Positions 16,238 to 49,148 are shown, counted from the stretch's first letter. The stretch: DNA of 64,000 nt from an uncultured Alphaproteobacteria bacterium (GCA_963540515.1 CAUTNA010000004.1:585-64584), one strand, 5' to 3'. The notes: generated from the letters alone by a model not told the origin. Numbers and translations are program-made.

Positions 16238-16918
16238 TTGAATAATAACAGTATAGAGCCTTCCAAATTACTTTCAAGAATAATTATTTTTATTCTCGCT
16301 TCTTCTTTTGTATCAATCATTGTTCTTATTCTTGCAATTGTTAATATTTTTCCACTAGAAAAAACTCAATTATTTTTTCTTACAACAGAAACTCCTAAAG
16401 ATATCGAAGTTAACATAACCTCTTTTATGCCAAATAAAGATAATTTAGAGACTTTGAAAGAATCTTTTATTAAAGAGTATATAAAAGTTAGAAATGAAAT
16501 AGTACCGGATGCTAACTTTATGAGAAAAAAATGGTCAGCAACAAATGAAGGATATGTATATTTATGGAGTTCTGAAAATATATTTAAGTCATTTACAAAA
16601 ACATCTATGTGGAACGCATATATGAATGATAAACCAGATATTGAATTTAATTGTCCTGTCGAATTTACGAGCATAAAACCTTGGTCATCTTCTGATAATA
16701 CTTACGCTGTAAGTTTTAGATACTTCTGTTCAGATATTAATAGACAAACACTTAAGAAAGATTATACAATACTTGTAAAAATAGAGATTGAAAATAAGTT
16801 AAAATGGACTGAAAGATTACAAAATCCACTTGGAATAAAAGTTGTAGAATATAAAATAGAGACAGGGGAAAATGATCCTTTAGATTTTGGTTTAAATTAT
16901 GGTTCATCTAAAGAATAA
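16238..16918 (+). CDS. virB8: Type IV secretion system protein VirB8 (TTG start)
   Basis: 226 aa with an N-terminal cytoplasmic segment, one TM, and a periplasmic domain ending in the VirB8 signature NPLGIKVVEYK (NPxG motif). It is followed in an operon by VirB9- and VirB10-like genes. Confidence 0.6.
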   Translation: MNNNSIEPSKLLSRIIIFILASSFVSIIVLILAIVNIFPLEKTQLFFLTTETPKDIEVNITSFMPNKDNLETLKESFIKEYIKVRNEIVPDANFMRKKWSATNEGYVYLWSSENIFKSFTKTSMWNAYMNDKPDIEFNCPVEFTSIKPWSSSDNTYAVSFRYFCSDINRQTLKKDYTILVKIEIENKLKWTERLQNPLGIKVVEYKIETGENDPLDFGLNYGSSKE

Positions 16919-16932
16919 ATTAAAGGAAGAAG

Positions 16933-18402
16933 ATGTTTAGTATTGTTAGATTCTTATTTTTTATAATAATTTTATCAATTACAGAAAATTCAAAAGCTGT
17001 AGGAGAATATGGAGTTCAAGAAGCATGGGACAACCCGACAGCAAATATGACTGCAGGAAGTATTAAACCAGGTTATGCACAACTTTCTTGGTCTCAAGGT
17101 ACGGTTCTTCCTATAAAACTCAGGCATGGTATGGTAACTATGATAACTCTACCAGAAGGTGAAGAAATAGAAGATGGTATTGTTGGAGCAGATGGTTTGT
17201 TTGATCTTAAAGCAAATAAGGGGGCAAGAACTTTTCACTTAAGTCCATCTGGAAGTAATCAAGGAGCAGATACAAATTTAATTATAACTGGTAGATCTGG
17301 TAATAAATATTTATTTTATTTAAGAAGTGAACCTTCTAATTCAAGTGAAATTACTTATTCACAAGTCGATATTGTATTAGAAGGAAATGGAACTATTCAA
17401 AATACATCTGTATCTAATTCATCTTATGCTGGAATGAATTCTATTTTTAAGAAAGAATCAAGAAGTTCTCTTGGAGTTGATGGAGAAGATTATGGTTGGA
17501 TAAAAACTATGAAAATAGATCCTTCAGAATTCAGGTTTGATATAGATATTTTTGTACCAAATCCTGACGATTATGTCATAGCACCCGAGCGAGTTTGGAG
17601 AGATAGAATATTTACCTATATTGATTTTGGGGATAAAGTTATAGCTATGACTCAAAGACCAGTTGTATCTCTGTTAGTTGAAGGTGGTGAAAGCCCTGTT
17701 GGTTTCAGAACAGATGGAGAAAATGGAAGACTTTTAATAATTGAAGCTGTTGGAGATATGGTGCTTCGTAGTGGACAACGAATTGTCTGTATAAAAAGAC
17801 GTTCAAAACCATTCTTAATAACAGATACTTCAAGTGTTATGGCTCTTGCGGAGGCAAATGTCGCAAAATCTATGACTTCTAATCAATCTTTTAATAATGT
17901 TGGTTATAATAATTTTGGTAGTGGTATTAATAATACACCTTTGAACTCTAACATGATGCAGACACCTCAAAATAATTCAATAGGAAATTATAATAATTAT
18001 CAAACTCGAAGCAGTGATACTGTTCACATGTTGCCAACAGAAAGAAATACTGCAGGATCATACTTACCAACTTCTGGTATTCCACTTATATCAAGTAATC
18101 AAAAAGGTGTTGCAATCGAATTACAATCAGACACATCTGTAAAGGCATTGAATGATTATTGGACAGGACTTATTGCTAAGTTCAGTGGAGATGATGGAAA
18201 AGGAATACTCACACCTTATAAAAATATGGTATTCTTTGCAGTTGATGAACAAGGTGTTGGGGAACTAGGATCAGAGTCCGTTGCATCTCGTTTATACAGA
18301 TTAAGAATAGGACCATTAAAAGATATGGATACAGCACAAAGCCTTTGTGATAAACTTTTGAAGTTCTCTGGAACAATATGTAAAATTGTACGTGTTCAAT
18401 AA
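16933..18402 (+). CDS. virB9: VirB9/TrbG-like T4SS protein with an N/Q-rich linker and a C-terminal SPOR-like domain
   Basis: Signal peptide; VirB9 N-domain (TNLIITGRSGNKYLFYL); VirB9 C-domain (TYIDFGDK...PVVSLLVEGGESPVGFRTDGEN...VGDMVLRSGQRIVCI). The C-terminal ~100 aa resemble a SPOR domain (YRLRIGPLKDMDTAQSLCDKL, paired Cys), comparable to the SPOR tail of the DacA homolog in this window. Confidence 0.55.
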   Translation: MFSIVRFLFFIIILSITENSKAVGEYGVQEAWDNPTANMTAGSIKPGYAQLSWSQGTVLPIKLRHGMVTMITLPEGEEIEDGIVGADGLFDLKANKGARTFHLSPSGSNQGADTNLIITGRSGNKYLFYLRSEPSNSSEITYSQVDIVLEGNGTIQNTSVSNSSYAGMNSIFKKESRSSLGVDGEDYGWIKTMKIDPSEFRFDIDIFVPNPDDYVIAPERVWRDRIFTYIDFGDKVIAMTQRPVVSLLVEGGESPVGFRTDGENGRLLIIEAVGDMVLRSGQRIVCIKRRSKPFLITDTSSVMALAEANVAKSMTSNQSFNNVGYNNFGSGINNTPLNSNMMQTPQNNSIGNYNNYQTRSSDTVHMLPTERNTAGSYLPTSGIPLISSNQKGVAIELQSDTSVKALNDYWTGLIAKFSGDDGKGILTPYKNMVFFAVDEQGVGELGSESVASRLYRLRIGPLKDMDTAQSLCDKLLKFSGTICKIVRVQ

Positions 18403-20808
18403 ATGAAAAAGTTAAAAAAACAGTTTTTAGAGATAAGAAAAAATATTCCTAAACAAACACAGTGGTTAATGTTAATTGCTGTGTTTGTAATAGTGCTTAT
18501 ACTGATGACATTGCTTCTTAATAAAAAAAATAATAGAACAAAAATTCCAGATATTAATACAGAATCTCCAGTACTTACAATTTCACCTAAGACAGAATTA
18601 GATTTAACAAATATTGAAGTTGGAGATACAAGAATAGAAGACTTTATTATTTCAGCAAATAAAGATGTAAAAGTATTATCTGTAAAATTTGAAAATGATA
18701 TAGAAGGACTTTCAAAAAAAACAACTTGTGAAAATATAGGAAAAATAAATACAAAAGTAACTTGTAATATAAATATTGAATTTAAACCAAAAAATAAAAT
18801 AGACACAAAAATAACTGCAATTTTAATTGATTGGAGAGGTGCTTTTGAACCTGAAAAAATGAATAAAACAGACAGAATAAATATAACAATTAATTCTAAA
18901 GAAAAAAAAGATGAAAAAATTGAGATAAAAGAAGAATCTGAAAAAGTTAGTTCTGATACTAATAAAGAAGAACAAAAGAAAGAAAATGAAACTATTGATA
19001 CTAAAGAAGAAATTAAAGGAAATATAGAGACAGAAAAAATTGAAGAAAATAAACCAATAATTTCAGAGGAAATTAAAGAAGAGATAAAAAAAGATATAGA
19101 AGATATTTCAAAAGATCCTTTAAAAATGGAAGAAGAATTTGAAAAAACTACAGAAGAAGATACAAATGAAAATAAAAGCGAGAGTTGTTCAGAATTTTCA
19201 TTTCCAGGATATAGTATATCAGGGGATCAAATTGGTTGGATAAAACCTGAAAAAGGATCATATAAATTTTATCCTTTTTCTGATAAAACTTGTACAAATC
19301 CAACAGGTACATACAACCCAGATAATGGAATTATAACTGATATAAAGGATTCATCAAAAAAAATAGGAACTGATGCTGATCATATTGGAGGAGCAACAAA
19401 TATAACAGTATCAAATATACCAAGCCTTTCAAAAGCACCAGATGCAAGACCAGTAAATAAAGCAAAGCAACTAACCGCAGACGAAGTAAAAGATTTTACA
19501 TATGGAGAGGCTAAGCAAGTTGTAGTACAAACAAGCGATTTTAATAAATATAAACCTTCTTCTTTAGGACAAGATAATGGAACTAATAGTAATGTAACAA
19601 TATCTAGTGAACCATATAATAGAACATTTGTACTTCGTCAATATAAACCAATACCTGCTACAATTGTAACAGAAATTAAAGCAGTTAAAGATGGTTCAAA
19701 ATTACCAGTTACTGCAACAGTTGATAGAAATGTTTATTCAGATAATGGAAGAACAATTATACTTCCAACAGGAACTTTAATGCTTGGGTATGTTTCAGAT
19801 GAAAATGTACCTGGTCCATATAAATCAATAGGACGTATGAATTTAGAATGGTATCGATTTGTAAGACCAGATGGTGTTGAATTTAATTTTATTGATAAAA
19901 GACCTTTTGCAGGTGATGCACAAGGAAGATCTGGAGTTCCTGGGCATGGTAGTACCGATTATATAGAAGAATTTTTTATGCCAATGTTAACTGCAATTGT
20001 TCCTGCTGCGGTTAATATGATAGCACCAATTTCAGATAAAATAGTGAATCAAATTAACTTAGACTCAAATGTAGTAACACAAACAGGACAAGTAAGATCC
20101 TCTGAACTTGCAAAAAATGAAATAGTTAAATCTTGGGATAGAATAGCACAAAAATTATTAACAGATTCTATGAATAATACAGTGCCACCATTTTCAATAG
20201 CAGCAGGAACAAGAATTACCGTATACTCACCAACTGATTTAATTGTAACTTGTGGTGAAAATACAGGTAAAAATTGTGCTATAACAGCACCAAGTAGAGA
20301 ATATGCAGAATATAAACCTAAAAACTTGGAACCTGGTGGAGGAGATTATAAAAATTCTTTAGTTGGACAAGTTAGATCTTTTAATTTAGACGGTTTTTGT
20401 ATGACAGATGAAAAAACTCGTAGAATAACCGTTGATGAAAATAAGCTTAAAAATTCTGGTTATGACTATAGAACAGTATTATTCTATTGCCAATCAAAAC
20501 AATATGATGCGATTAATAATGCCAAACAAGATGCTATATTTAAAAATCAACAAGAAATTGGTGGTAAGATAGAGAAAGGATCAAAAGAATATAATGAGAA
20601 AACACTAGGACTGGAATACGAAGGAGATAAAATAAAAAATCCATTTGAACAGAAAAAAGAGGAAGCACCTTCTGGTTTGAAATGTGAGGATGGAACATCA
20701 CCAGATTCAAACGGATGTTGTACTGGTGAAAAATATACAGATATGGGTGAACAAGGATTTAATTGTTGTCCTGAAGCAGGTGGTGACTGCTTCCCACCAT
20801 TAAAATAA
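18403..20808 (+). CDS. virB10: VirB10/TrbI-like T4SS protein with an E/K-rich repeat linker and a Cys-rich C-terminal extension
   Basis: N-terminal cytoplasmic segment plus TM (LMLIAVFVIVLILMTLLL), then a low-complexity E/K/I repeat region. The TrbI/VirB10 beta-barrel motifs DAQGRSGVPGHG and AAGTRITVYSPTDL are present. Beyond the usual C-terminus there are ~190 extra residues with at least 12 cysteines. Confidence 0.65.
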   Translation: MKKLKKQFLEIRKNIPKQTQWLMLIAVFVIVLILMTLLLNKKNNRTKIPDINTESPVLTISPKTELDLTNIEVGDTRIEDFIISANKDVKVLSVKFENDIEGLSKKTTCENIGKINTKVTCNINIEFKPKNKIDTKITAILIDWRGAFEPEKMNKTDRINITINSKEKKDEKIEIKEESEKVSSDTNKEEQKKENETIDTKEEIKGNIETEKIEENKPIISEEIKEEIKKDIEDISKDPLKMEEEFEKTTEEDTNENKSESCSEFSFPGYSISGDQIGWIKPEKGSYKFYPFSDKTCTNPTGTYNPDNGIITDIKDSSKKIGTDADHIGGATNITVSNIPSLSKAPDARPVNKAKQLTADEVKDFTYGEAKQVVVQTSDFNKYKPSSLGQDNGTNSNVTISSEPYNRTFVLRQYKPIPATIVTEIKAVKDGSKLPVTATVDRNVYSDNGRTIILPTGTLMLGYVSDENVPGPYKSIGRMNLEWYRFVRPDGVEFNFIDKRPFAGDAQGRSGVPGHGSTDYIEEFFMPMLTAIVPAAVNMIAPISDKIVNQINLDSNVVTQTGQVRSSELAKNEIVKSWDRIAQKLLTDSMNNTVPPFSIAAGTRITVYSPTDLIVTCGENTGKNCAITAPSREYAEYKPKNLEPGGGDYKNSLVGQVRSFNLDGFCMTDEKTRRITVDENKLKNSGYDYRTVLFYCQSKQYDAINNAKQDAIFKNQQEIGGKIEKGSKEYNEKTLGLEYEGDKIKNPFEQKKEEAPSGLKCEDGTSPDSNGCCTGEKYTDMGEQGFNCCPEAGGDCFPPLK

Positions 20809-20973: not shown

Positions 20974-21672
20974 TTAATCTCTCCAAGATACAGATTCAAA
21001 TAAACTATTTATTTTATTTTTATATTCAATATCATTAAAAAATTTATTTCTCTCTGTATCTGTAGTTTTGTTATCTTCTTTTTCAAAATGAGGAATATAT
21101 TTTTGAACAGCATATTTTTTAACACCTTTAGATGATAAAAATTTAGCTATTTCTAATAAATCTTCTTTAGAGATAAAACGAGGATCACAAGTTGTTCTTA
21201 CTTCTCCATCTTTGCCTGAATCTAACCAAACTTGTAAACTTTTTAATAAAAAATCATATCCTAAAGAAATTCCTGTTACCCTATCAAAATTATTTTTAGT
21301 TCCTTTAAAATCTAATCCCAACCAATCTACAAACTCTAAAGCCTTTTTCAATTTTTCTGGATAAAAGCCATTTGAATGAAGTCCAATATAAAAACCCATT
21401 TCTTTAACAAGTTTTATATATTCAATTAAATTATCTCCTTGCATTAAAGCTTCACCACCTGAAAAAACAACTGCTTCTAATTTTCCCTTCCTTGTATTTA
21501 ACCATTCTAAAATTTTATCAGGATCATATTCACCAAGACCAACTTCAATAAGATGAGGATTTGAACAGTAAGGACACCTCATAGGGCAGCCTTTTAAAAA
21601 CAAAACGGCGGACAACTTTCCAGGATAATCAATAGTTGTAAAAGGGGTAAAACCGCCGATTTGTATAGTCAT
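20974..21672 (-). CDS. nrdG: Anaerobic ribonucleoside-triphosphate reductase activating protein (radical SAM)
   Basis: CPMRCPYC radical-SAM cluster motif near the N-terminus; 232 aa; adjacent to nrdD. Confidence 0.85.
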   Translation of the reverse strand: MTIQIGGFTPFTTIDYPGKLSAVLFLKGCPMRCPYCSNPHLIEVGLGEYDPDKILEWLNTRKGKLEAVVFSGGEALMQGDNLIEYIKLVKEMGFYIGLHSNGFYPEKLKKALEFVDWLGLDFKGTKNNFDRVTGISLGYDFLLKSLQVWLDSGKDGEVRTTCDPRFISKEDLLEIAKFLSSKGVKKYAVQKYIPHFEKEDNKTTDTERNKFFNDIEYKNKINSLFESVSWRD

Positions 21673-21681
21673 AAAATACCT

Positions 21682-21855
21682 TTAAGCAGCTTTTTTCAAA
21701 AGAGAGTTATGGCGCATTCCTGCAGATATTCCATTTTCTTCTTTAAACATTTTTCTTTCACAAAATTCAGAATACTTACCAATATTAAAATTAGAAACAG
21801 GTCTGATAAAACCCATAGATCTTGAAAATACTTCACATTTTGTTCTTTCTTTCAT
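21682..21855 (-). CDS. Small glycyl-radical-domain protein: a separate C-terminal module of class III RNR (start placed at the ATG preceded by the AGAGGAG Shine-Dalgarno; the track ORF begins 3 codons earlier at GTG)
   Basis: SRSMGFIRPVSNFNIGKYSEFCERK matches the NrdD C-terminal glycyl-radical motif (R-x-x-G-Y/F ... N-x-G-K...E). It has its own RBS and is in a different frame from nrdD. Confidence 0.5.
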   Translation of the reverse strand: MKERTKCEVFSRSMGFIRPVSNFNIGKYSEFCERKMFKEENGISAGMRHNSLLKKAA

Positions 21856-21878
21856 TTTTTTCACTCCTCTGTTTTTTG

Positions 21879-23891
21879 TTAATCAATCTTTGTTTCATTT
21901 GCAACTGAAAGTTCTGCATCACACTTTGGGCAGAATTCATATTTACCAGCCAAATAACCGTGCTTTGGACATATTGAAAATGTTGGTGTCAATGTCATAT
22001 AAGGTATCTTATAATTCTCAAAGATAGTTTTTACTATTTTTTGTGCAGCCTCTCCTGATGATACTGGTTCTCCCATATATAAGTGCAACATAGTTCCGCC
22101 CGTATATTTTCTTTGCAGTTCTTCTTGATGTTCCAAAGCAACAAAAGGATCATCTGTATAGTTAACTGGTAATTGAGATGAATTTGTATAGTAAGGTGCA
22201 TCTTTTGTACCAGCAGTTATTATATCTGGATAATTTTTAATATCAGTTTTAGCAAATCTGTATGAACAACCTTCAGCTGGTGTTGCCTCTAAATTATATA
22301 AATTTCCAGTTTCTTCTTGGTATTTTACCAGATTATCACGAATGTAATCCATAACCTCTAATACCAAATTTTTACCAAAATCTGTCGCAATACTATCTTT
22401 ACCAGAAGTAAAGTTTAAAACCATTTCATTAGAACCATTTATTCCAATTGTTGAAAAATGATTATTCCAAGTATTTAAATAACGTTTTGTAAATGGATAT
22501 AGTCCCCTTTCCATATTTTTAGTTATAACTTTTCTTTTTATCTCTAAAGATTCTCTTGCTAAATCAAGAAGTCTTTGTAATTCTCTGAATAATCCTTCTT
22601 TATTACCTTTATAAATATATCCAAGTCTTGCCAAATTAATAGTTACAACCCCAATAGATCCTGTTTTTTCAGCAGAACCAAATAATCCACCACCACGTTT
22701 TAAAAGTTCTCTTACATCTAAACGTAATCTGCAACACATAGAACGAACATCAGTAGGGTTTAAATCAGAATTTAAAAAATTCTGAAAATTTGGTATTCCA
22801 TATTTTGCAGCTAAATCAAATAAAGGCTTTGTATTTGGATGATCCCAAGGAAAATCATCTGTTATATTGTATGTAGGAATTGGAAAAGTAAATGGTCTGC
22901 CGTGTGCATCACCTTCTGTCATAACTTCAATAAAAGCTTTGTTCAAAATATCCATTTCTTCTTGAAGTTCTCCATAAGTAAAATCAACATATTTTCCACC
23001 AACAAAAGGTTTTTGTTCTCTCAAATCTTTTGGACAAACCCAATCAAAAGTAAAATTGATAAAAGGTGTCTGAGTTCCCCAACGACATGGAACAGCACAA
23101 TTAAAAACAAGAGTTTGCATAGCATTTTTCACATCTTTATAAGATAATTTATCAACTCTTATATATGGGGCAAGATATGTATCAACAGATGAAAAAGCTT
23201 GAGCACCAGCAAATTCATTTTGAAGTGTTCCCAAGAAATTTACCATATGCGATACAGCTGTCACCATATGTTTTGCAGGTGAACATTGTAAAAATCCAGG
23301 AACTCCATTAAATCCTTCATACAACAATTCACGAAGTGACCAACCTGCACAATATCCAGTAAGCCAACCAAGATCATGAATATGAACAGCTGCAGTTTTA
23401 TGAGCCTGCGCTATTTCTTCTGGGTATAAATTTAACCAATATTCTGCAACAACTCTTTCTGATGTTCTTAAAATAAGTCCACCTATTGAATAACCAACAT
23501 TAGCATTCTCTTTAACTCTCCAATCTGCTGCTTTTACATATCCATCAATAATATCAACAGCATCAACCATAGAATTTCTTATTTCAGCTTTCTTTTGTCT
23601 ATAGACTATATAAGCTTCCGCAGTCTTATAAACTTTAAAATTCATTAATTCTTCAACTACTATATCTTGTATTTCTTCAACAGATGGAATTTTATTAGCA
23701 AAGCGATCTTCAAGTCTTTTTATAATACTATCTACTATATCTAAAACCCTAGAATCATTAATTTCTCCAGTAGAATCAGCTGCTTTTTTTATTGCATTAA
23801 ATATATATTTTGAATCAAAAGAAACCTGACTTCCATCCCTTTTTATTACGTAGTTTAAACCAGAATTACAAGAGCAATTATCACAACACAT
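21879..23891 (-). CDS. nrdD: Anaerobic ribonucleoside-triphosphate reductase, class III, catalytic subunit lacking the terminal glycyl-radical segment
   Basis: 670 aa with an N-terminal ATP-cone-like region and a C-terminal Zn ribbon (CPKHGYLAGKYEFCPKC). The ORF ends before the glycyl-radical motif. Confidence 0.85.
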   Translation of the reverse strand: MCCDNCSCNSGLNYVIKRDGSQVSFDSKYIFNAIKKAADSTGEINDSRVLDIVDSIIKRLEDRFANKIPSVEEIQDIVVEELMNFKVYKTAEAYIVYRQKKAEIRNSMVDAVDIIDGYVKAADWRVKENANVGYSIGGLILRTSERVVAEYWLNLYPEEIAQAHKTAAVHIHDLGWLTGYCAGWSLRELLYEGFNGVPGFLQCSPAKHMVTAVSHMVNFLGTLQNEFAGAQAFSSVDTYLAPYIRVDKLSYKDVKNAMQTLVFNCAVPCRWGTQTPFINFTFDWVCPKDLREQKPFVGGKYVDFTYGELQEEMDILNKAFIEVMTEGDAHGRPFTFPIPTYNITDDFPWDHPNTKPLFDLAAKYGIPNFQNFLNSDLNPTDVRSMCCRLRLDVRELLKRGGGLFGSAEKTGSIGVVTINLARLGYIYKGNKEGLFRELQRLLDLARESLEIKRKVITKNMERGLYPFTKRYLNTWNNHFSTIGINGSNEMVLNFTSGKDSIATDFGKNLVLEVMDYIRDNLVKYQEETGNLYNLEATPAEGCSYRFAKTDIKNYPDIITAGTKDAPYYTNSSQLPVNYTDDPFVALEHQEELQRKYTGGTMLHLYMGEPVSSGEAAQKIVKTIFENYKIPYMTLTPTFSICPKHGYLAGKYEFCPKCDAELSVANETKID

Positions 23892-29513: not shown

Positions 29514-30614
29514 TTAACGAAAAATATAATTATCAATTCCAATTTCTTTAGCACTTTTTTGTATTTTATCTGCTTCTTCTTTAGATAAACTACCAGTACG
29601 AACTCTAAATATTCCAACATTACTTTTATCTATATTTGTTCTAATTCCAAGTTTTTGAAATATTTTTTCCTGTAATTGTTTTGCAGAATTTACATTAGAA
29701 AAAGCACCAAACTGAATACCACCAGAGCTATTATTTGCACTTACAGTATATTCAGGCTTATTAACAACACCAGTATTATTACTAATATTTTTCTGATTAG
29801 AATTATTTTTTAATTTAGAAAAACCAATATCTAACATTTTCATAGAAATATCAGATCTGATTTTTTTATTCTGTGCCCCTAAAATAACACTTATTATATG
29901 TTTATTTCCCCTTTTAGCAGAAGAAACTAAAGAATATTTTGATTTGTTTGTAAAACCTGTTTTCATACCATCACAACCAGAATACTTTTCTAATAGATCA
30001 TTAGTATTTTTATATTTTTTTCCATTATATTCCCAATTTTTTATACCAAAATATTTCCAATATTTAGGAAAATGTTTATAAACTGCCATTGACATCATAG
30101 CAATATCACGAGCTGTTGATAAATGATCATCACTTGGAAGTCCTGAAGAATTTTGAAAATTTGTCTTTGAAAGTCCTATTTCTGTTGCAACATTTGTCAT
30201 AAGAGATGCAAAACTTCCTTCTTTTCCACCCTTTAAATTTTCAGCCAATACCCTTGCAACATCATTTGCACTTCGAACAGCTAAAGCTTTTATTGCGTCT
30301 TCAACTTTTATTTTACTTCCAGCTTTAAGTCCAAGCTTTACAGGTTCAGCCTTAGTTGCTATATCCGACACTATTAAATAGTCATCTAAACTAAGTCTAC
30401 CATGTTCTAAAGCATCAAATGTTAAATATAATGTCATTATTTTTGTTAATGAAGCTGGATAATTCAAATCATTAGAGTTTTCTTGATATAGTATCTCCCC
30501 CGTATCCATATCGGCGACAAGTGCAGCTTTGTAATCTTTAGAAAAAGCAAGACTTACAACAAAAAAATTAACACAAAAACAACTAAATAAAATATTAATA
30601 AAGAATATTCTCAT
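29514..30614 (-). CDS. dacA: D-alanyl-D-alanine carboxypeptidase (PBP5/6-like) with a C-terminal SPOR domain
   Basis: SxxK (ASLTKIM), SxN (RSAND) and KTG (MKTGFT) motifs. C-terminal IQFGAFSN...IFRVRTGSL is SPOR-like. Confidence 0.75.
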   Translation of the reverse strand: MRIFFINILFSCFCVNFFVVSLAFSKDYKAALVADMDTGEILYQENSNDLNYPASLTKIMTLYLTFDALEHGRLSLDDYLIVSDIATKAEPVKLGLKAGSKIKVEDAIKALAVRSANDVARVLAENLKGGKEGSFASLMTNVATEIGLSKTNFQNSSGLPSDDHLSTARDIAMMSMAVYKHFPKYWKYFGIKNWEYNGKKYKNTNDLLEKYSGCDGMKTGFTNKSKYSLVSSAKRGNKHIISVILGAQNKKIRSDISMKMLDIGFSKLKNNSNQKNISNNTGVVNKPEYTVSANNSSGGIQFGAFSNVNSAKQLQEKIFQKLGIRTNIDKSNVGIFRVRTGSLSKEEADKIQKSAKEIGIDNYIFR

Positions 30615-32352: not shown

Positions 32353-32670
32353 ATGAAAAAATTTACACAAAGAAAAGAAGATTTTATTTGTGAAAATTGT
32401 GGGACAAAAGTTAGAGGCAATGGTTATACAAATCATTGCCCAAATTGTTTATATTCAAAGGATGTAGATATAAATCCAGGTGATAGAAAATCCATTTGTA
32501 ATGGAATTATGAAACCAATATCAATAGAAATAGATAAAGATACTTTCATAATAACACATAAGTGTTTAAAATGTGGAAAAATAAGTAAATGCAAAAATTC
32601 TGAAAATGACAATATTGAAGAAATTATAAATATTTCAAAAAATTCAAACTTTATATTTGGTAAAAAATAA
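32353..32670 (+). CDS. RNHCP-domain zinc-ribbon protein
   Basis: CENCG...TNHCPNCLYSKDVD...CLKCG; 105 aa. Confidence 0.5.
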   Translation: MKKFTQRKEDFICENCGTKVRGNGYTNHCPNCLYSKDVDINPGDRKSICNGIMKPISIEIDKDTFIITHKCLKCGKISKCKNSENDNIEEIINISKNSNFIFGKK

Positions 32671-34601
32671 TGAAAGAATTTTTTTATACACAAAAACAAA
32701 ACATTTTAATCTGGATTGCTTTTTTTATTACTATAGGATCTATCTCATATTTTTTATTACCCTTTGAACCTAATATAATAATATTTTCAATAATTTCTTT
32801 TTTAATAAGTTTATTTATAATCTTATTTAAAAGAAATTTTCTTATAATTTTTCTATCCTTTATATTTGGTTTTATATATCCATTGATTTTTGCAAGAACA
32901 ATTAATACATTTAAAATATCCCATAACTATAAAAATATATCTGTTTATGGAGAGATTGAAGATATAAACTATGAAAAAGATAAAACAAAAATTATATTTA
33001 AAGTTATTGAATCTAAAATTTCAAATAAACCTTTCAAAGTAAAACTATCCTCAAATCAAAATCTAGATTTAAAAGTTGGAGATAGACTTATTGCAAAAAT
33101 ATCTTTATTTAAACCAAATTCAAAATCAGATCCTGCATCTTTTGATTATGCTCGTTTTTTATACTTTAATTCTATAACAGCAACCGGATTTTTAGATGAA
33201 TATTTAAAAGAAGAAAATGTAAATTCCGATAATATAATAAAAAAATTACGATTATATATTCATAAAAAAGCAAATTCTTTTTTAACCGATAGCTTATTCT
33301 TAGGATATAAAAATACAATACCTAAAGAAGAAAAAGAAGTTTGGCTAAAATCTGGAATTGGACACATCTGGTCAATCAGTGGACTTCATATAACAATAAT
33401 ATCAATTATTTCTTTCTTTATATTTTTTAATATATTCAGATTAATTTCACCTATAACTAAAAGATTTCCTGCAAGATATCCAACAAGTTTTATAACTATC
33501 TTTTTTATTTTTCTGTATTTATTAATATCAGGTTCTAATGTATCTACTATAAGAGCTGTACTTTCTGCTTTTATTATTTTTGTTGCATTTGTATTAAATA
33601 GATATTCTGTAAGTATAAGAACTATGTCTATAGTATATTTAATTACCTATTTATTTAATCCACATTTTTTAATGCAAGCGTCATTTCAACTTTCTTTTTC
33701 TGCAGTAATTGGAATCATTTTCATAGTAGAAAAAATTAGAAATAATAACAGAAACTTTAAAAATAAATTAAAAGTATTTTTATCAATACCTATCATATCA
33801 AGTATATTTACATTACCTTTTTTAGGAATACATTTTCATTACTTCCCTTTATTTTCATTAATTGGAAACATAATTATTTTACCAATATTTTCTTTTATAA
33901 TAATGCCACTAGTATTTTTAGGAACTATTTTTAGTCTGTTTGATTTTAAATTTATAAATAGATTCACAATAAATATATACAATTATATTTATAATAACTT
34001 AGATTTTATGTTATCTAAAATCTCATATACCGAAATTAAAATTCCATTTATATCAAATACATCTATGCTTTTTATAATTACAGGACTATTTTTTATAATC
34101 GCAATAATAAACATAGATAAAAATAAATTCACCAAAAACGCTAACTTAATTATTGGTTCCTCTTTTATAATATTAGGATTAATATTATCTTTTTTTACAA
34201 AAAAGCCATTATTTTATATAACTCTTGATCATGAACTAATAGCAGTATTAGATAAAAACAACTTAAAATTTAATAAAACAAAAAGTTCAAATCATTTTTT
34301 TGTATTTAATAACTGGAAATATATGAATAATGAGAAATTAAATACTCAAAATTTAAAATATAATTGTAAAAAAGGATTATGTCTGTATAAAACAGATAAA
34401 TGGACAATTGCATATACAAAAAGATTCAAAATACTAGAAAAAAATTTAATAAAATTATGCAAAGATAAAAATATAACTTATATAGCAAGTTATTTTGATA
34501 TAGAGGCAAAAGAGTGTAATAAAAAGATTTTAAAAGATGCCTTTGTTATATATGAAAGTGGAAAAGTAGAATACATAAAACAAAACAGAATCTGGAATTA
34601 A
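32670..34601 (+). CDS. comEC: ComEC/Rec2-family DNA internalization membrane protein (no obvious metallo-beta-lactamase domain)
   Basis: Polytopic protein; the WLKSGIGHIWSISGLHITII segment matches the ComEC competence domain; 643 aa. Confidence 0.6.
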   Translation: MKEFFYTQKQNILIWIAFFITIGSISYFLLPFEPNIIIFSIISFLISLFIILFKRNFLIIFLSFIFGFIYPLIFARTINTFKISHNYKNISVYGEIEDINYEKDKTKIIFKVIESKISNKPFKVKLSSNQNLDLKVGDRLIAKISLFKPNSKSDPASFDYARFLYFNSITATGFLDEYLKEENVNSDNIIKKLRLYIHKKANSFLTDSLFLGYKNTIPKEEKEVWLKSGIGHIWSISGLHITIISIISFFIFFNIFRLISPITKRFPARYPTSFITIFFIFLYLLISGSNVSTIRAVLSAFIIFVAFVLNRYSVSIRTMSIVYLITYLFNPHFLMQASFQLSFSAVIGIIFIVEKIRNNNRNFKNKLKVFLSIPIISSIFTLPFLGIHFHYFPLFSLIGNIIILPIFSFIIMPLVFLGTIFSLFDFKFINRFTINIYNYIYNNLDFMLSKISYTEIKIPFISNTSMLFIITGLFFIIAIINIDKNKFTKNANLIIGSSFIILGLILSFFTKKPLFYITLDHELIAVLDKNNLKFNKTKSSNHFFVFNNWKYMNNEKLNTQNLKYNCKKGLCLYKTDKWTIAYTKRFKILEKNLIKLCKDKNITYIASYFDIEAKECNKKILKDAFVIYESGKVEYIKQNRIWN

Positions 34602-46410: not shown

Positions 46411-47721
46411 TTATTTTTTTAAAGCATCTTTTGTAGATTTATAAATTTTTTGTATATCTGAAATTAATTTCTTAACATCACTAACAATTTTATTACCACT
46501 TGAAGTATCTACACTTCCACCAATACTTTTAGCAAAAAATTCTGTTTTAGTTAATAGGTATCCAATAAGTAATCCAGAGATTAAAAGTGTTATAGAGTCA
46601 TAATTTTCTGCATTTGAAACTGATTTAAAATCTATACCAACACCAGCAAAAATAGCAAAACATAGTGATATAATAATAGATAAAGATATAAAATATATTA
46701 TTGCATTTACAAACCTTTGAATTGCTGAATCTAAAGAATTTCCATTAAATATCCCCATAAATTTATTGAAAACAACTCCTGCATACCCATCATAACTTGT
46801 TCTCATACTACCACCAGATACAATAGTATTTGTTACACTTGTAAAAATATTTGAATTTGAATCTTCTTTTCCAGAAAAACAATGTGATATTGCAGTGAAA
46901 GGCAACATTAATATTACTAAAAACAAATCAACAATAACTGAAAAAGACATTAAAGCAAATTTCCATATATTTATTAAAAATATAAAAACTAAAGAAACTC
47001 CTAAAATAAAAGTAAAAGCACTTGTTCCAATACCTAAAAACATTAACTTAAAACCAGAAACTATTGCAGAATAAAAAAAACCAGAAAATCTTGTCGATAA
47101 ACACAGTAGAGAAGATATATCTTCTGATTGAAGAATACTAGTTGTTGAATTACCAACAAAATTTTGTACAGCCGTACAAGTATCTGGTAAATTAGTTCCT
47201 ATAGAACTTGCAACAGAACCCAAAATTGTATCCGAAATTAAAGTACCTAACATAAGTAAAGGTTTTATTATCCACATAAATAATTGTTCTGGGGACTGCT
47301 GTATTATAAATATCCATATAAAGATAAGTATTGCCTTCTTTACAGCACTTTCAAATAATATACTTGGTTTTGATGACTTCTTTATCATTTGATAAATTTC
47401 TAAGGTTAACCAAAAAATTAAAGCAATTGTCATAAATATAGATACAAAATCAACAAATGAATTTTTCAGAATATAACTAATATTTGACATAGCTTTTATA
47501 AGAGCAAATCCAAGCCTTGCTTCAATTGGTACAAAAGTTTTATCTGAAAAGCTTGTCTGAAATGTTCCTTGGAAATTTTCTAAATCTGTTTTTATTGTTG
47601 AATTTATTGATTCTCTATTGTTTTCCGTTGTCCAAGAACCAAAATTTCCGATATCCCCACTATCACCAAAACAATTAGATGAAAATATTAAAGCAATTAA
47701 AAGAATTATTTTTTTTATCAT
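46411..47721 (-). CDS. VirB6/TrbL-like polytopic membrane protein, paralog 1
   Basis: Signal peptide, periplasmic N-domain and at least 5 TMs; tandem with four similar genes. Confidence 0.4.
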   Translation of the reverse strand: MIKKIILLIALIFSSNCFGDSGDIGNFGSWTTENNRESINSTIKTDLENFQGTFQTSFSDKTFVPIEARLGFALIKAMSNISYILKNSFVDFVSIFMTIALIFWLTLEIYQMIKKSSKPSILFESAVKKAILIFIWIFIIQQSPEQLFMWIIKPLLMLGTLISDTILGSVASSIGTNLPDTCTAVQNFVGNSTTSILQSEDISSLLCLSTRFSGFFYSAIVSGFKLMFLGIGTSAFTFILGVSLVFIFLINIWKFALMSFSVIVDLFLVILMLPFTAISHCFSGKEDSNSNIFTSVTNTIVSGGSMRTSYDGYAGVVFNKFMGIFNGNSLDSAIQRFVNAIIYFISLSIIISLCFAIFAGVGIDFKSVSNAENYDSITLLISGLLIGYLLTKTEFFAKSIGGSVDTSSGNKIVSDVKKLISDIQKIYKSTKDALKK

Positions 47722-49145
47722 TTACTTTTATTTACCATTTTTAATATTCTCTCGGGAATACTTTTTACCGTTTTACCAAGAGTTTTTAAATATCCTCCAT
47801 AATCAAATTCTTCTTTTCCAATACTACCTAATATTTCATCTATTTTTGGAGAAACTAAATAAAAATATATAAAAAATATTCCTATCATAAGAATTATAAA
47901 TTCAAAACCATTATCCATAAAATCAAAAGCCCCAGGATATTTTCTTTCTACTTCTGCTTTTTTTGCTGTAAAACAATTCTTAAATTTATCTTTATCTAAC
48001 TTTCCATCTTCAATAGATATTTTTTCACAATTTGAAAAGACAGAAATTATACTATCAGTCTTTGCATCTATATTTTGTTTATTTTCTAATATTGGAGGTA
48101 ATATTGCATTATAACCATCTTGCGGTGCTGGAAAATATTCATCTGCACAAAATGATATAATAGAATATAAAACTAACGTTTTTAAAGTTACAGATACTAT
48201 TTTTACAGAAGAATCTATAATCATATTAAATGCGTTTGGAACAACATTTTTTGCAATAGTCCAAGTTTTTTCAAATGTATAAAAAAATATAATAATAGGA
48301 AAAAAAATAATAATAAATATTAATTTAAATAAAACAGATAATATTTGAAAAAATAGATTAAAACCAATTAACATAAACATAATAATAAGCCCAAAACCAG
48401 CTAACCAAGTGAGTGTTCCGCCACCAAGTCCAAGCCAAGAATAATTCATCAATGCAAAGCCACCAGATACACCTGCAAGACTTATGAAATTTATATTTGA
48501 AATTGTGCACATAAAAGGGCGCATAATTGGATTCAACAAATCATTTGATTCTTTTATCTCCATATTACAACTTGATGAGTATGCAGTTTTTGTTGCAATC
48601 ATAGATATTTCACTACCTATCAACATAACAGGTGATATTACTATACTTGATAAAGACTTTAAGAAAGAAATATTTGAATTATTAGTGTTTGCAAATACTA
48701 AAAAACTTCCAACTATAATTACTCTGATACCTTGGTTTAGTATTTTATCAAATAAAGGTTTAAATTCTAATTTCTTATCCCCTGCATCCAAAACAGCATT
48801 TTTTTTCGATGCTTCATATAAGTGCTCTGCTATTGATACAATTAGAAATATTCCAAACCCTAAGAAAACTAATAAAGATAAAGTTCCAACTATTTTTATC
48901 CAGAAATTTTCTGCAACATTCCCAATCATTGCAAAAAGTCTTTCTATATAACTACACAAAAAACAACTGTTTGATGAAGCTATATCACCATCTTTTACAC
49001 CAATAGCAGATAAAAAATTATCTATACTTGAAAAAGATATTGAAGATCCACCAATTGCAACCGAAACATACCAAACACCTAATCCTATCAATATAAGATT
49101 AATACCAAATTTTATACATAAAGAAACAATTTTTGCTTTTAACAT
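47718..49145 (-). CDS. VirB6/TrbL-like polytopic membrane protein, paralog 2
   Basis: N-terminal CFLCSYIERLF motif shared with paralogs 3 and 5; multi-TM; 4-nt overlap with paralog 1. Confidence 0.4.
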   Translation of the reverse strand: MLKAKIVSLCIKFGINLILIGLGVWYVSVAIGGSSISFSSIDNFLSAIGVKDGDIASSNSCFLCSYIERLFAMIGNVAENFWIKIVGTLSLLVFLGFGIFLIVSIAEHLYEASKKNAVLDAGDKKLEFKPLFDKILNQGIRVIIVGSFLVFANTNNSNISFLKSLSSIVISPVMLIGSEISMIATKTAYSSSCNMEIKESNDLLNPIMRPFMCTISNINFISLAGVSGGFALMNYSWLGLGGGTLTWLAGFGLIIMFMLIGFNLFFQILSVLFKLIFIIIFFPIIIFFYTFEKTWTIAKNVVPNAFNMIIDSSVKIVSVTLKTLVLYSIISFCADEYFPAPQDGYNAILPPILENKQNIDAKTDSIISVFSNCEKISIEDGKLDKDKFKNCFTAKKAEVERKYPGAFDFMDNGFEFIILMIGIFFIYFYLVSPKIDEILGSIGKEEFDYGGYLKTLGKTVKSIPERILKMVNKSK

Positions 49146-49148
49146 TTA

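Follow-up and report, generated by a model that had tools for sequence, protein, structure and literature searches.

A VirB9 homolog of an uncultured alphaproteobacterium carries a C-terminal SPOR-like domain on a flexible linker

A stretch of 64,000 nucleotides (nt) from an uncultured Alphaproteobacteria bacterium (GCA_963540515.1 CAUTNA010000004.1:585-64584), referred to here as the window, was analysed for a homolog of VirB9, a core-complex subunit of type IV secretion systems (T4SS). The open reading frame (ORF) at 16933-18402 on the plus strand has an ATG start and codes for 489 amino acids (aa) plus a stop, exactly as given in a first-pass annotation of this DNA. Sequence comparisons and structural models support a fusion, in which a flexible linker connects the VirB9 part with a SPOR-like domain. 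The fusion is real, widespread and unannotated; it is not a new class of system. That this divergent SPOR-fold domain tethers the outer-membrane core of the T4SS to peptidoglycan appears fairly probable to us. The gene and the parts of its product are as follows.

16933..18402, plus strand: virB9-SPOR fusion gene (from the ORF list; full-length homologs)
16933..16998, plus strand: probable Sec signal peptide, aa 1-22
17080..17799, plus strand: VirB9/CagX domain, aa 50-289
17818..18084, plus strand: flexible linker, aa 296-384
18085..18399, plus strand: SPOR-like C-terminal domain, aa 385-489 (folded core aa 392-488), with key residues E396 (canonical Gln position), S399, D400, Y455-R-L-R-I-G-P461, C472 (α2) and C483 (β4)

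The VirB9/CagX domain scores 71.4 bits against PF03524 (E 1.2e-19; cutoff 34.2 bits). The match spans profile positions 5-197 of 198 and ends at the motif RIVCIKR (aa 283-289), where the first-pass annotation had placed the domain boundary. The score with the NCBIfam VirB9 model TIGR02781 is 43.6 bits, under the equivalog cutoff of 217.7 bits, and the protein is thus a divergent member of the VirB9 family and not a P-type equivalog. The signal peptide was recognized by inspection, with MFSIVR as n-region, FLFFIIILSI as h-region and TENSKA, followed by V, as c-region. An AlphaFold2 (AF2) model places a helix at aa 2-15, and conservation of the region (0.30) is the lowest in the protein. A third Cys, C286 (17788-17790), lies in the VirB9 C-terminal domain and is invariant across the deep alignment. 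In Agrobacterium VirB9, a Cys in this region forms the disulfide to VirB7.

Beyond the VirB9 domain the protein extends by about 200 aa compared with unextended VirB9 proteins, which account for 63 of the 150 nearest representatives. The extension begins with the linker, in which a short helix at aa 300-314 is followed by low-complexity coil. The linker had been described as N/Q-rich; its composition (N16, S12, T10 and 4 Q over aa 296-385) makes it N/S/T-rich instead. The full-length AF2 model is of low confidence, with an overall predicted local distance difference test score (pLDDT) of 49.9, and served for the layout of linker and domain only. In this model aa 315-389 have no secondary structure (pLDDT ~32), and the SPOR-like module appears again at aa 392-488. 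Across 52 family members, the VirB9 core (mean pairwise column identity 0.81) and the C-terminal domain (0.80) are better conserved than the linker (0.58). The linker also has the most indel columns, 36, compared with 16 for the signal peptide and 15 for the VirB9 core; the C-terminal domain has none. The linker varies from 82 to 109 aa in these members and reaches ~290 aa in distant relatives. The C-terminal domain is thus under strong purifying selection against a variable linker, and the pattern of conserved core and C-terminal domain around a variable, predicted-disordered segment is the signature of two functional domains with a flexible tether between them.

The assignment of the C-terminal domain to SPOR rests on orthologs and on the predicted fold, because the window protein itself scores below the curated gathering score of Pfam SPOR PF05036 (21 bits). 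It reaches 14.6 bits at full length, 16.9 bits with the last 150 aa and 17.5 bits with the last 112 aa. The profile check suggested at first pass gives a match below the threshold in this protein and above it in relatives: 7 of 10 orthologs taken from progressively more distant relatives pass the threshold with 21.9-31.3 bits, and one of the orthologs, P0135, aligns to PF05036 positions 4-76 of 76. A SPOR match at E<=1 was found in all 29 diverse C-termini of the family (best E 3.1e-7), and three homologs carry precomputed annotation with both PF05036 and PF03524. When the C-terminal domain profile was compared with the SPOR domains of FtsN (checked against PDB 1UTA), CwlC and DacA, the β3-α2 segment aligned with E 3.8e-5. 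A search of PDB sequences with the family profile found no solved structure, only chance antibody matches (E>=0.06).

When the last 112 aa were modelled alone with AF2 (pLDDT 75.7), the elements came out in the order β-α-(short α)-β-β-α-β, in agreement, apart from the short helix, with the β-α-β-β-α-β pattern proposed at first pass. In a Foldseek search with this model the SPOR domain of RlpA was the top match (prob 1.0), the SPOR domains of CwlC and DedD were also present, and SPOR domains ranked above every other annotated fold. The proposed domain thus has both a profile match and a predicted SPOR-like fold, and neither of the outcomes named at first pass as refuting it was seen. A second SPOR domain is encoded in the window outside the T4SS genes and was used as comparator.

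29514..30614, minus strand: DacA-type D,D-carboxypeptidase with C-terminal SPOR domain (Peptidase_S11 1.5e-56; SPOR 31.1 bits)

This DacA ends in a bona fide SPOR domain, as had been noted earlier (aa 299-364, E 3e-7), and keeps the canonical Gln (GGIQFGAF). Its SPOR domain gave only a weak CwlC match against PDB, which yielded no SPOR reference set. No similarity between the VirB9 C-terminal domain and the DacA SPOR domain was detected with hhalign (Prob 3.6). Pairwise identity among SPOR domains is below 20% (bioRxiv 10.1101/2022.07.01.498525), so a dissimilarity of this kind is expected and is not evidence against the SPOR call. The genome thus encodes both kinds of domain, a canonical SPOR on DacA and a Glu-type SPOR on VirB9.

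The fusion is widespread in Alphaproteobacteria and far from unique to this genome. The ORF has 1822 homologs, and the top 120 of them are near full length (459-528 aa, 92-100% query coverage). A relative is encoded in at least 590 GTDB species genomes, and the C-terminal domain is present in all of the best 80 loci. This recurrence indicates that the extension is not an assembly artefact. In a census of the nearest 150 representatives at 50% clustering, 21 carry an extension with a detectable domain, 42 carry an extension of another kind that is 80 aa or longer, and 63 carry none. Iteration of the hidden Markov model (HMM) recruits 8 of the 42 other tails to the window-domain family; a further 24, with a C..C ending, are homologous to the window domain (hhalign Prob 90.2, E 1.5e-6, 92 columns), and 10 of the 42 do not have the C..C motif. 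The cluster names of the distant relatives were uninformative. Among individual members, P0128 sits in a chromosomal B8-B9-B10-B11 islet. P0138 and P0162 each sit in a complete conjugative T4SS locus, where VirB2/3/4/8/9/10/11 are accompanied by VirD4 and relaxase-type genes; that of P0138 additionally holds an SLT. The domain is also carried by WP_129392748.1 (430 aa; E 4.3e-14), encoded on the finished plasmid p1 of the cultured strain Sphingosinicella sp. BN140058; this protein is annotated only as TrbG/VirB9, and its β1 reads MVDLGAGD.

The domain departs from canonical SPOR at several positions, and the following points weigh against its reading as a peptidoglycan-binding SPOR. In the window protein the SPOR match is partial, with aa 452-475 covering profile positions 41-64 only. 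The sole highly conserved glycan-contacting side chain of SPOR domains is a Gln in β1 (RlpA Q270, FtsN Q251, DamX Q351; HMM position 8), and Phe is favoured at HMM position 12 (PMC6895207). Pfam coordinate maps put Gln at position 8 in P0135 (IAVQLGS) and Glu in P0128 (LAVELGA), by which E396 of the window protein (VAIELQSD) occupies position 8 and D400 position 12. A survey of 155 detected members, made up of 120 close relatives and 35 more distant rows, found Glu at position 8 in 120 of the 120 close relatives. Of the distant rows, 24 have Glu, 4 have Asp and one each has Gln and Val; the other 5 are gapped. An acidic residue thus invariably replaces the canonical glycan-binding Gln in this protein and its close relatives, which leaves the exact ligand uncertain, and position 12 is Asp where Phe is usual. 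With Gln replaced by Glu at the first position and Phe by Asp at the second, denuded glycan in particular is a tentative ligand.

The cysteines also differ from those of FtsN. The Cys pair that had been compared to the FtsN disulfide is real, as C472 and C483 are invariant in all 155 members, and C483, at the start of β4, is within one residue of the FtsN C312 register. C472 is located in α2, however, and the position of FtsN C252 in β1 is taken by Leu397, so that the FtsN-type arrangement is not matched. The C-terminal domain is probably stabilised by a putative disulfide between α2 and β4, where FtsN has its pair between β1 and β4. Together, the change from Gln to Glu and the α2/β4 Cys pair mark a distinct VirB9-associated SPOR subfamily that is not FtsN-type. 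Compared with canonical SPOR domains, the VirB9 domain further has an insert of ~15 residues with a short extra helix after α1, a long β2-β3 hairpin, Glu or Asp at position 8 and Asp at position 12. Retained are Ser/Ala at position 11 (FtsN S254, RlpA A273) and the β3 motif Y/F-R-L-R-I/V-G-P.

In the proposed mechanism VirB9 would be exported to the periplasm and take its place as a core-complex subunit under the outer membrane. Solved T4SS core complexes have the VirB9 C-terminal domain in the O-layer, directly beneath the outer membrane, in about 14 copies. Cores of the type IVA secretion systems have 14-fold symmetry (PMC9302130). With this placement, ~14 SPOR-like modules would hang from each machine, and the disordered tether of ~75-90 residues may reach from the O-layer to the peptidoglycan layer. 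There the modules would most likely bind peptidoglycan glycan strands through the face of the β-sheet, and this binding would anchor the core complex to the sacculus. It may also bias assembly to sites remodelled by amidases or lytic transglycosylases, such as the septum and new poles. From the features above we infer peptidoglycan binding, the copy number, the geometry and the role in localisation. Genes for septal peptidoglycan are encoded in the window (PBP1, MraY, FtsW, MurG, GlmS and the DacA with SPOR), which indicates that the organism builds septal peptidoglycan.

A different use of the same fold has to be weighed. The binding site may have been re-purposed, such that the domain does not recognise denuded glycan and instead contacts another envelope ligand or a protein partner. 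Candidates include modified or de-N-acetylated glycan, the amine of a stem peptide, the long VirB10 or another T4SS subunit. The acidic residue at position 8 is kept across the VirB9-associated subfamily, in all close relatives and in 28 of the 30 ungapped distant rows as Glu or Asp, which suggests selection at that site for a different chemistry. The Gln that it replaces is the key conserved contact according to Alcorlo et al. (PMC6895207). Moreover, the divergent C..C tails are homologous to the window domain and yet have lost detectable SPOR similarity, with a weak Pfam SPOR match in only 3 of the 42 other extended tails. Most contacts between SPOR and glycan are, however, reportedly mediated by the backbone or by shape, and all characterised SPOR domains bind denuded glycans despite sharing less than 20% identity (PMC6895207; bioRxiv 10.1101/2022.07.01.498525). 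One subfamily member, P0135, keeps the Gln, the canonical β3 motif and the position-11 Ser/Ala persist in the family, and none of the results indicates a partner protein. We regard a re-purposed site as possible but unlikely.

A bolder form of this idea is that the VirB9-associated SPOR-like domains, with their acidic residue and α2-β4 Cys pair, are a functionally distinct subfamily reading an envelope landmark other than denuded glycan, for example modified glycan; we consider it speculative and distinctly improbable. In its extreme form the landmark would be on another cell, the wall of a partner or recipient, provided that the tail is surface-exposed. If true, this would directly couple where, or onto what, the T4SS is deployed, and it would do so for reduced-genome, partner-dependent gut Alphaproteobacteria and conjugative plasmids alike.

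A purely structural add-on is very unlikely. The domain would then form an extra peripheral ring by self-association, or substitute for VirB7, and make no contact with peptidoglycan. The extra domain of Xanthomonas VirB7 provides an analogue for such a ring. The C-terminal domain is as conserved as the VirB9 core, as a structural part might be, and no small VirB7-like ORF was found upstream of virB8 in the window, where the related loci L082-L084 have an ORF of 54-63 aa in that slot. Conjugative loci with an ORF in the VirB7 slot also have the domain, however, and it is thus not a simple VirB7 replacement. The long, length-variable and predicted-disordered linker suits a tether that reaches out better than a fixed ring, and among annotated structures the best matches are SPOR domains that bind peptidoglycan. 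The remaining reading, of a mis-assembled or frame-fused ORF or of a generic ferredoxin-like fold with a chance SPOR match, has a negligible probability and is effectively refuted by the recurrence of the fusion in independent assemblies (more than 1800 homologous proteins, with relatives in the GTDB genomes counted above), its presence on a finished plasmid of a cultured strain, the orthologs that pass the curated Pfam threshold and the rank of SPOR above other annotated folds.

Compared with known systems, the protein has both shared and distinct features. With typical VirB9/TraO/TrbG proteins (pKM101 and Agrobacterium type; PF03524) it shares the VirB9/CagX domain, the signal peptide and the virB8-virB9-virB10 gene order. 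It differs from them by the ~200-aa C-terminal linker and domain and by its divergent sequence, and its locus differs from typical virB9 loci in being a chromosomal islet of three genes among housekeeping genes, with no virB4, virB11 or virD4 nearby. The rvh T4SS of Rickettsiales, which consists of scattered chromosomal islets with tandem VirB6 paralogs, was considered as a candidate type; the window has an islet among housekeeping genes, and its tandem membrane ORFs, described below, give no VirB6/TrbL signal. Canonical SPOR domains (PF05036: E. coli FtsN, DamX, DedD and RlpA, P. aeruginosa RlpA, B. subtilis CwlC) sit on division or peptidoglycan-remodelling proteins, whereas the one described here is attached to a T4SS core subunit and its binding is predicted.

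A peptidoglycan-binding-type module stoichiometric with a T4SS outer-membrane core is also present in the Legionella Dot/Icm system, as DotK and Dis1 (PMC9302130). These are separate lipoproteins of a type IVB system and have an OmpA-like fold, whereas the module in the window is of SPOR fold, is covalently fused to VirB9 and is part of a type IVA-like system. Type IVa pili likewise have an outer-membrane channel subunit or partner with a flexibly connected peptidoglycan-binding domain, the AMIN domain of PilQ and the LysM domain of TsaP, which are proposed to anchor or position the pilus machine (bioRxiv 10.1101/2020.05.29.123786). They differ in belonging to a secretin machine, in the AMIN and LysM folds and, for PilQ, in the N-terminal position of the domain.

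Full-text literature searches found no paper containing both "VirB9" and "SPOR domain". By their titles and abstract openings, none of the listed papers with "SPOR domain" and "type IV secretion" looked relevant, and the listed ones with "VirB9" and "peptidoglycan-binding" described no fused domain. These searches are consistent with the remark made at first pass that a SPOR domain is not known as a feature of VirB9. How T4SS cores cross peptidoglycan and are attached and positioned relative to it is poorly understood, and known binding elements, such as DotK and Dis1, are separate accessory subunits. A covalently tethered SPOR-type module on each VirB9 protomer would give the machine a peptidoglycan anchor or targeting device of its own, with high avidity if ~14 copies are present. 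With its Gln-to-Glu change, the subfamily may also broaden the range of ligand chemistry known for SPOR domains. The relatives, in the same >=590 species genomes, belong to abundant uncultured gut Alphaproteobacteria with reduced genomes (Rs-D84, "Ca. Enterousia"). Homologous fusions in conjugative loci, including the plasmid of the cultured Sphingosinicella, make the idea open to experiment.

The fusion gene is the middle gene of a T4SS islet, with the following neighbours.

16238..16918, plus strand: virB8, 226 aa, first gene of the three-gene islet (Pfam PF04335, E 2e-12, 47.9 bits)
18403..20808, plus strand: virB10, 801 aa (Pfam TrbI at aa 411-613, E 1.2e-19)

The gap between virB8 and virB9 is 14 nt and the virB9 stop directly abuts the virB10 ATG, which makes virB8-virB9-virB10 an operon-like islet. 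The gene order is kept in the related loci L001 and L082-L087. The islet is flanked by secE-nusG-rplKAJL-rpoBC on one side and by nrdG and nrdD on the other, all on the opposite strand. Queries from L082 and L083 gave no tblastn match to virB4, virB11, virD4, virB2 or virB6 in the 64-kilobase (kb) window, and none of these genes was found by tblastn in 80 related loci up to 10 kb from virB9.

The window has a GC content of ~28%. Its nearest relatives are gut metagenome-assembled genomes (MAGs) labelled as Candidatus Enterousia or as uncultured Alphaproteobacteria; their hosts are humans, mice, ruminants, horses and chickens. Ca. Enterousia belongs to the order Rs-D84, with genomes below 1 Mb and a fermentative metabolism, and its members are proposed to be obligate symbionts or parasites (PMC12306168). 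The genome analysis of Rs-D84 proposes a partner-dependent lifestyle and nowhere mentions secretion systems (PMC12306168). Directly downstream of the islet, at 20974-23891 on the minus strand, an NrdD-like anaerobic ribonucleotide reductase (670 aa) and its activase (232 aa) were identified by reading the sequences; the pair fits the strictly fermentative gut lifestyle given for Rs-D84 (PMC12306168).

Five consecutive ORFs of 386-475 aa occupy 46411-52906; four lie on the minus strand, and the remaining one is divergent, on the plus strand. Each has ~6-7 hydrophobic transmembrane-like segments, and they appear to be polytopic membrane paralogs. The similarity among them is weak (blastp E 3e-7 and 9e-5; hhalign Prob 95.7 between the families of 49149 and 51599), and no Pfam match was found for them even at E<=5. 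They were considered as tandem VirB6 paralogs in the style of the Rickettsiales rvh system, a reading that is not supported, as they show no VirB6/TrbL signal. The ORF at 49149-50309 has 726 homologs, of which the 120 listed are all without a Pfam domain or an informative name (MAG hypotheticals at most).

The virB10 product is unusually long. Its N-terminal ~400 aa include a low-complexity stretch rich in E and K, and the TrbI domain is followed by a tail of ~190 aa with a Cys-rich end (GLKCEDGTSPDSNGCCTGEKYTDMGEQGFNCCPEAGGDCFPPLK). VirB10 of the relative locus L082 has 1507 aa. NCBIfam scores the virB10 product of the window nearly alike as VirB10 (4.6e-18) and ComB10 (4e-16), and some members of the VirB9 family have been named 'ComB9 competence protein' by JGI. 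ComEC (32670-34601) is encoded ~12 kb downstream of the islet, and in L082 it lies two genes past virB11. A ComB-like DNA-uptake role of the islet is conceivable in this nucleotide-auxotrophic lineage.
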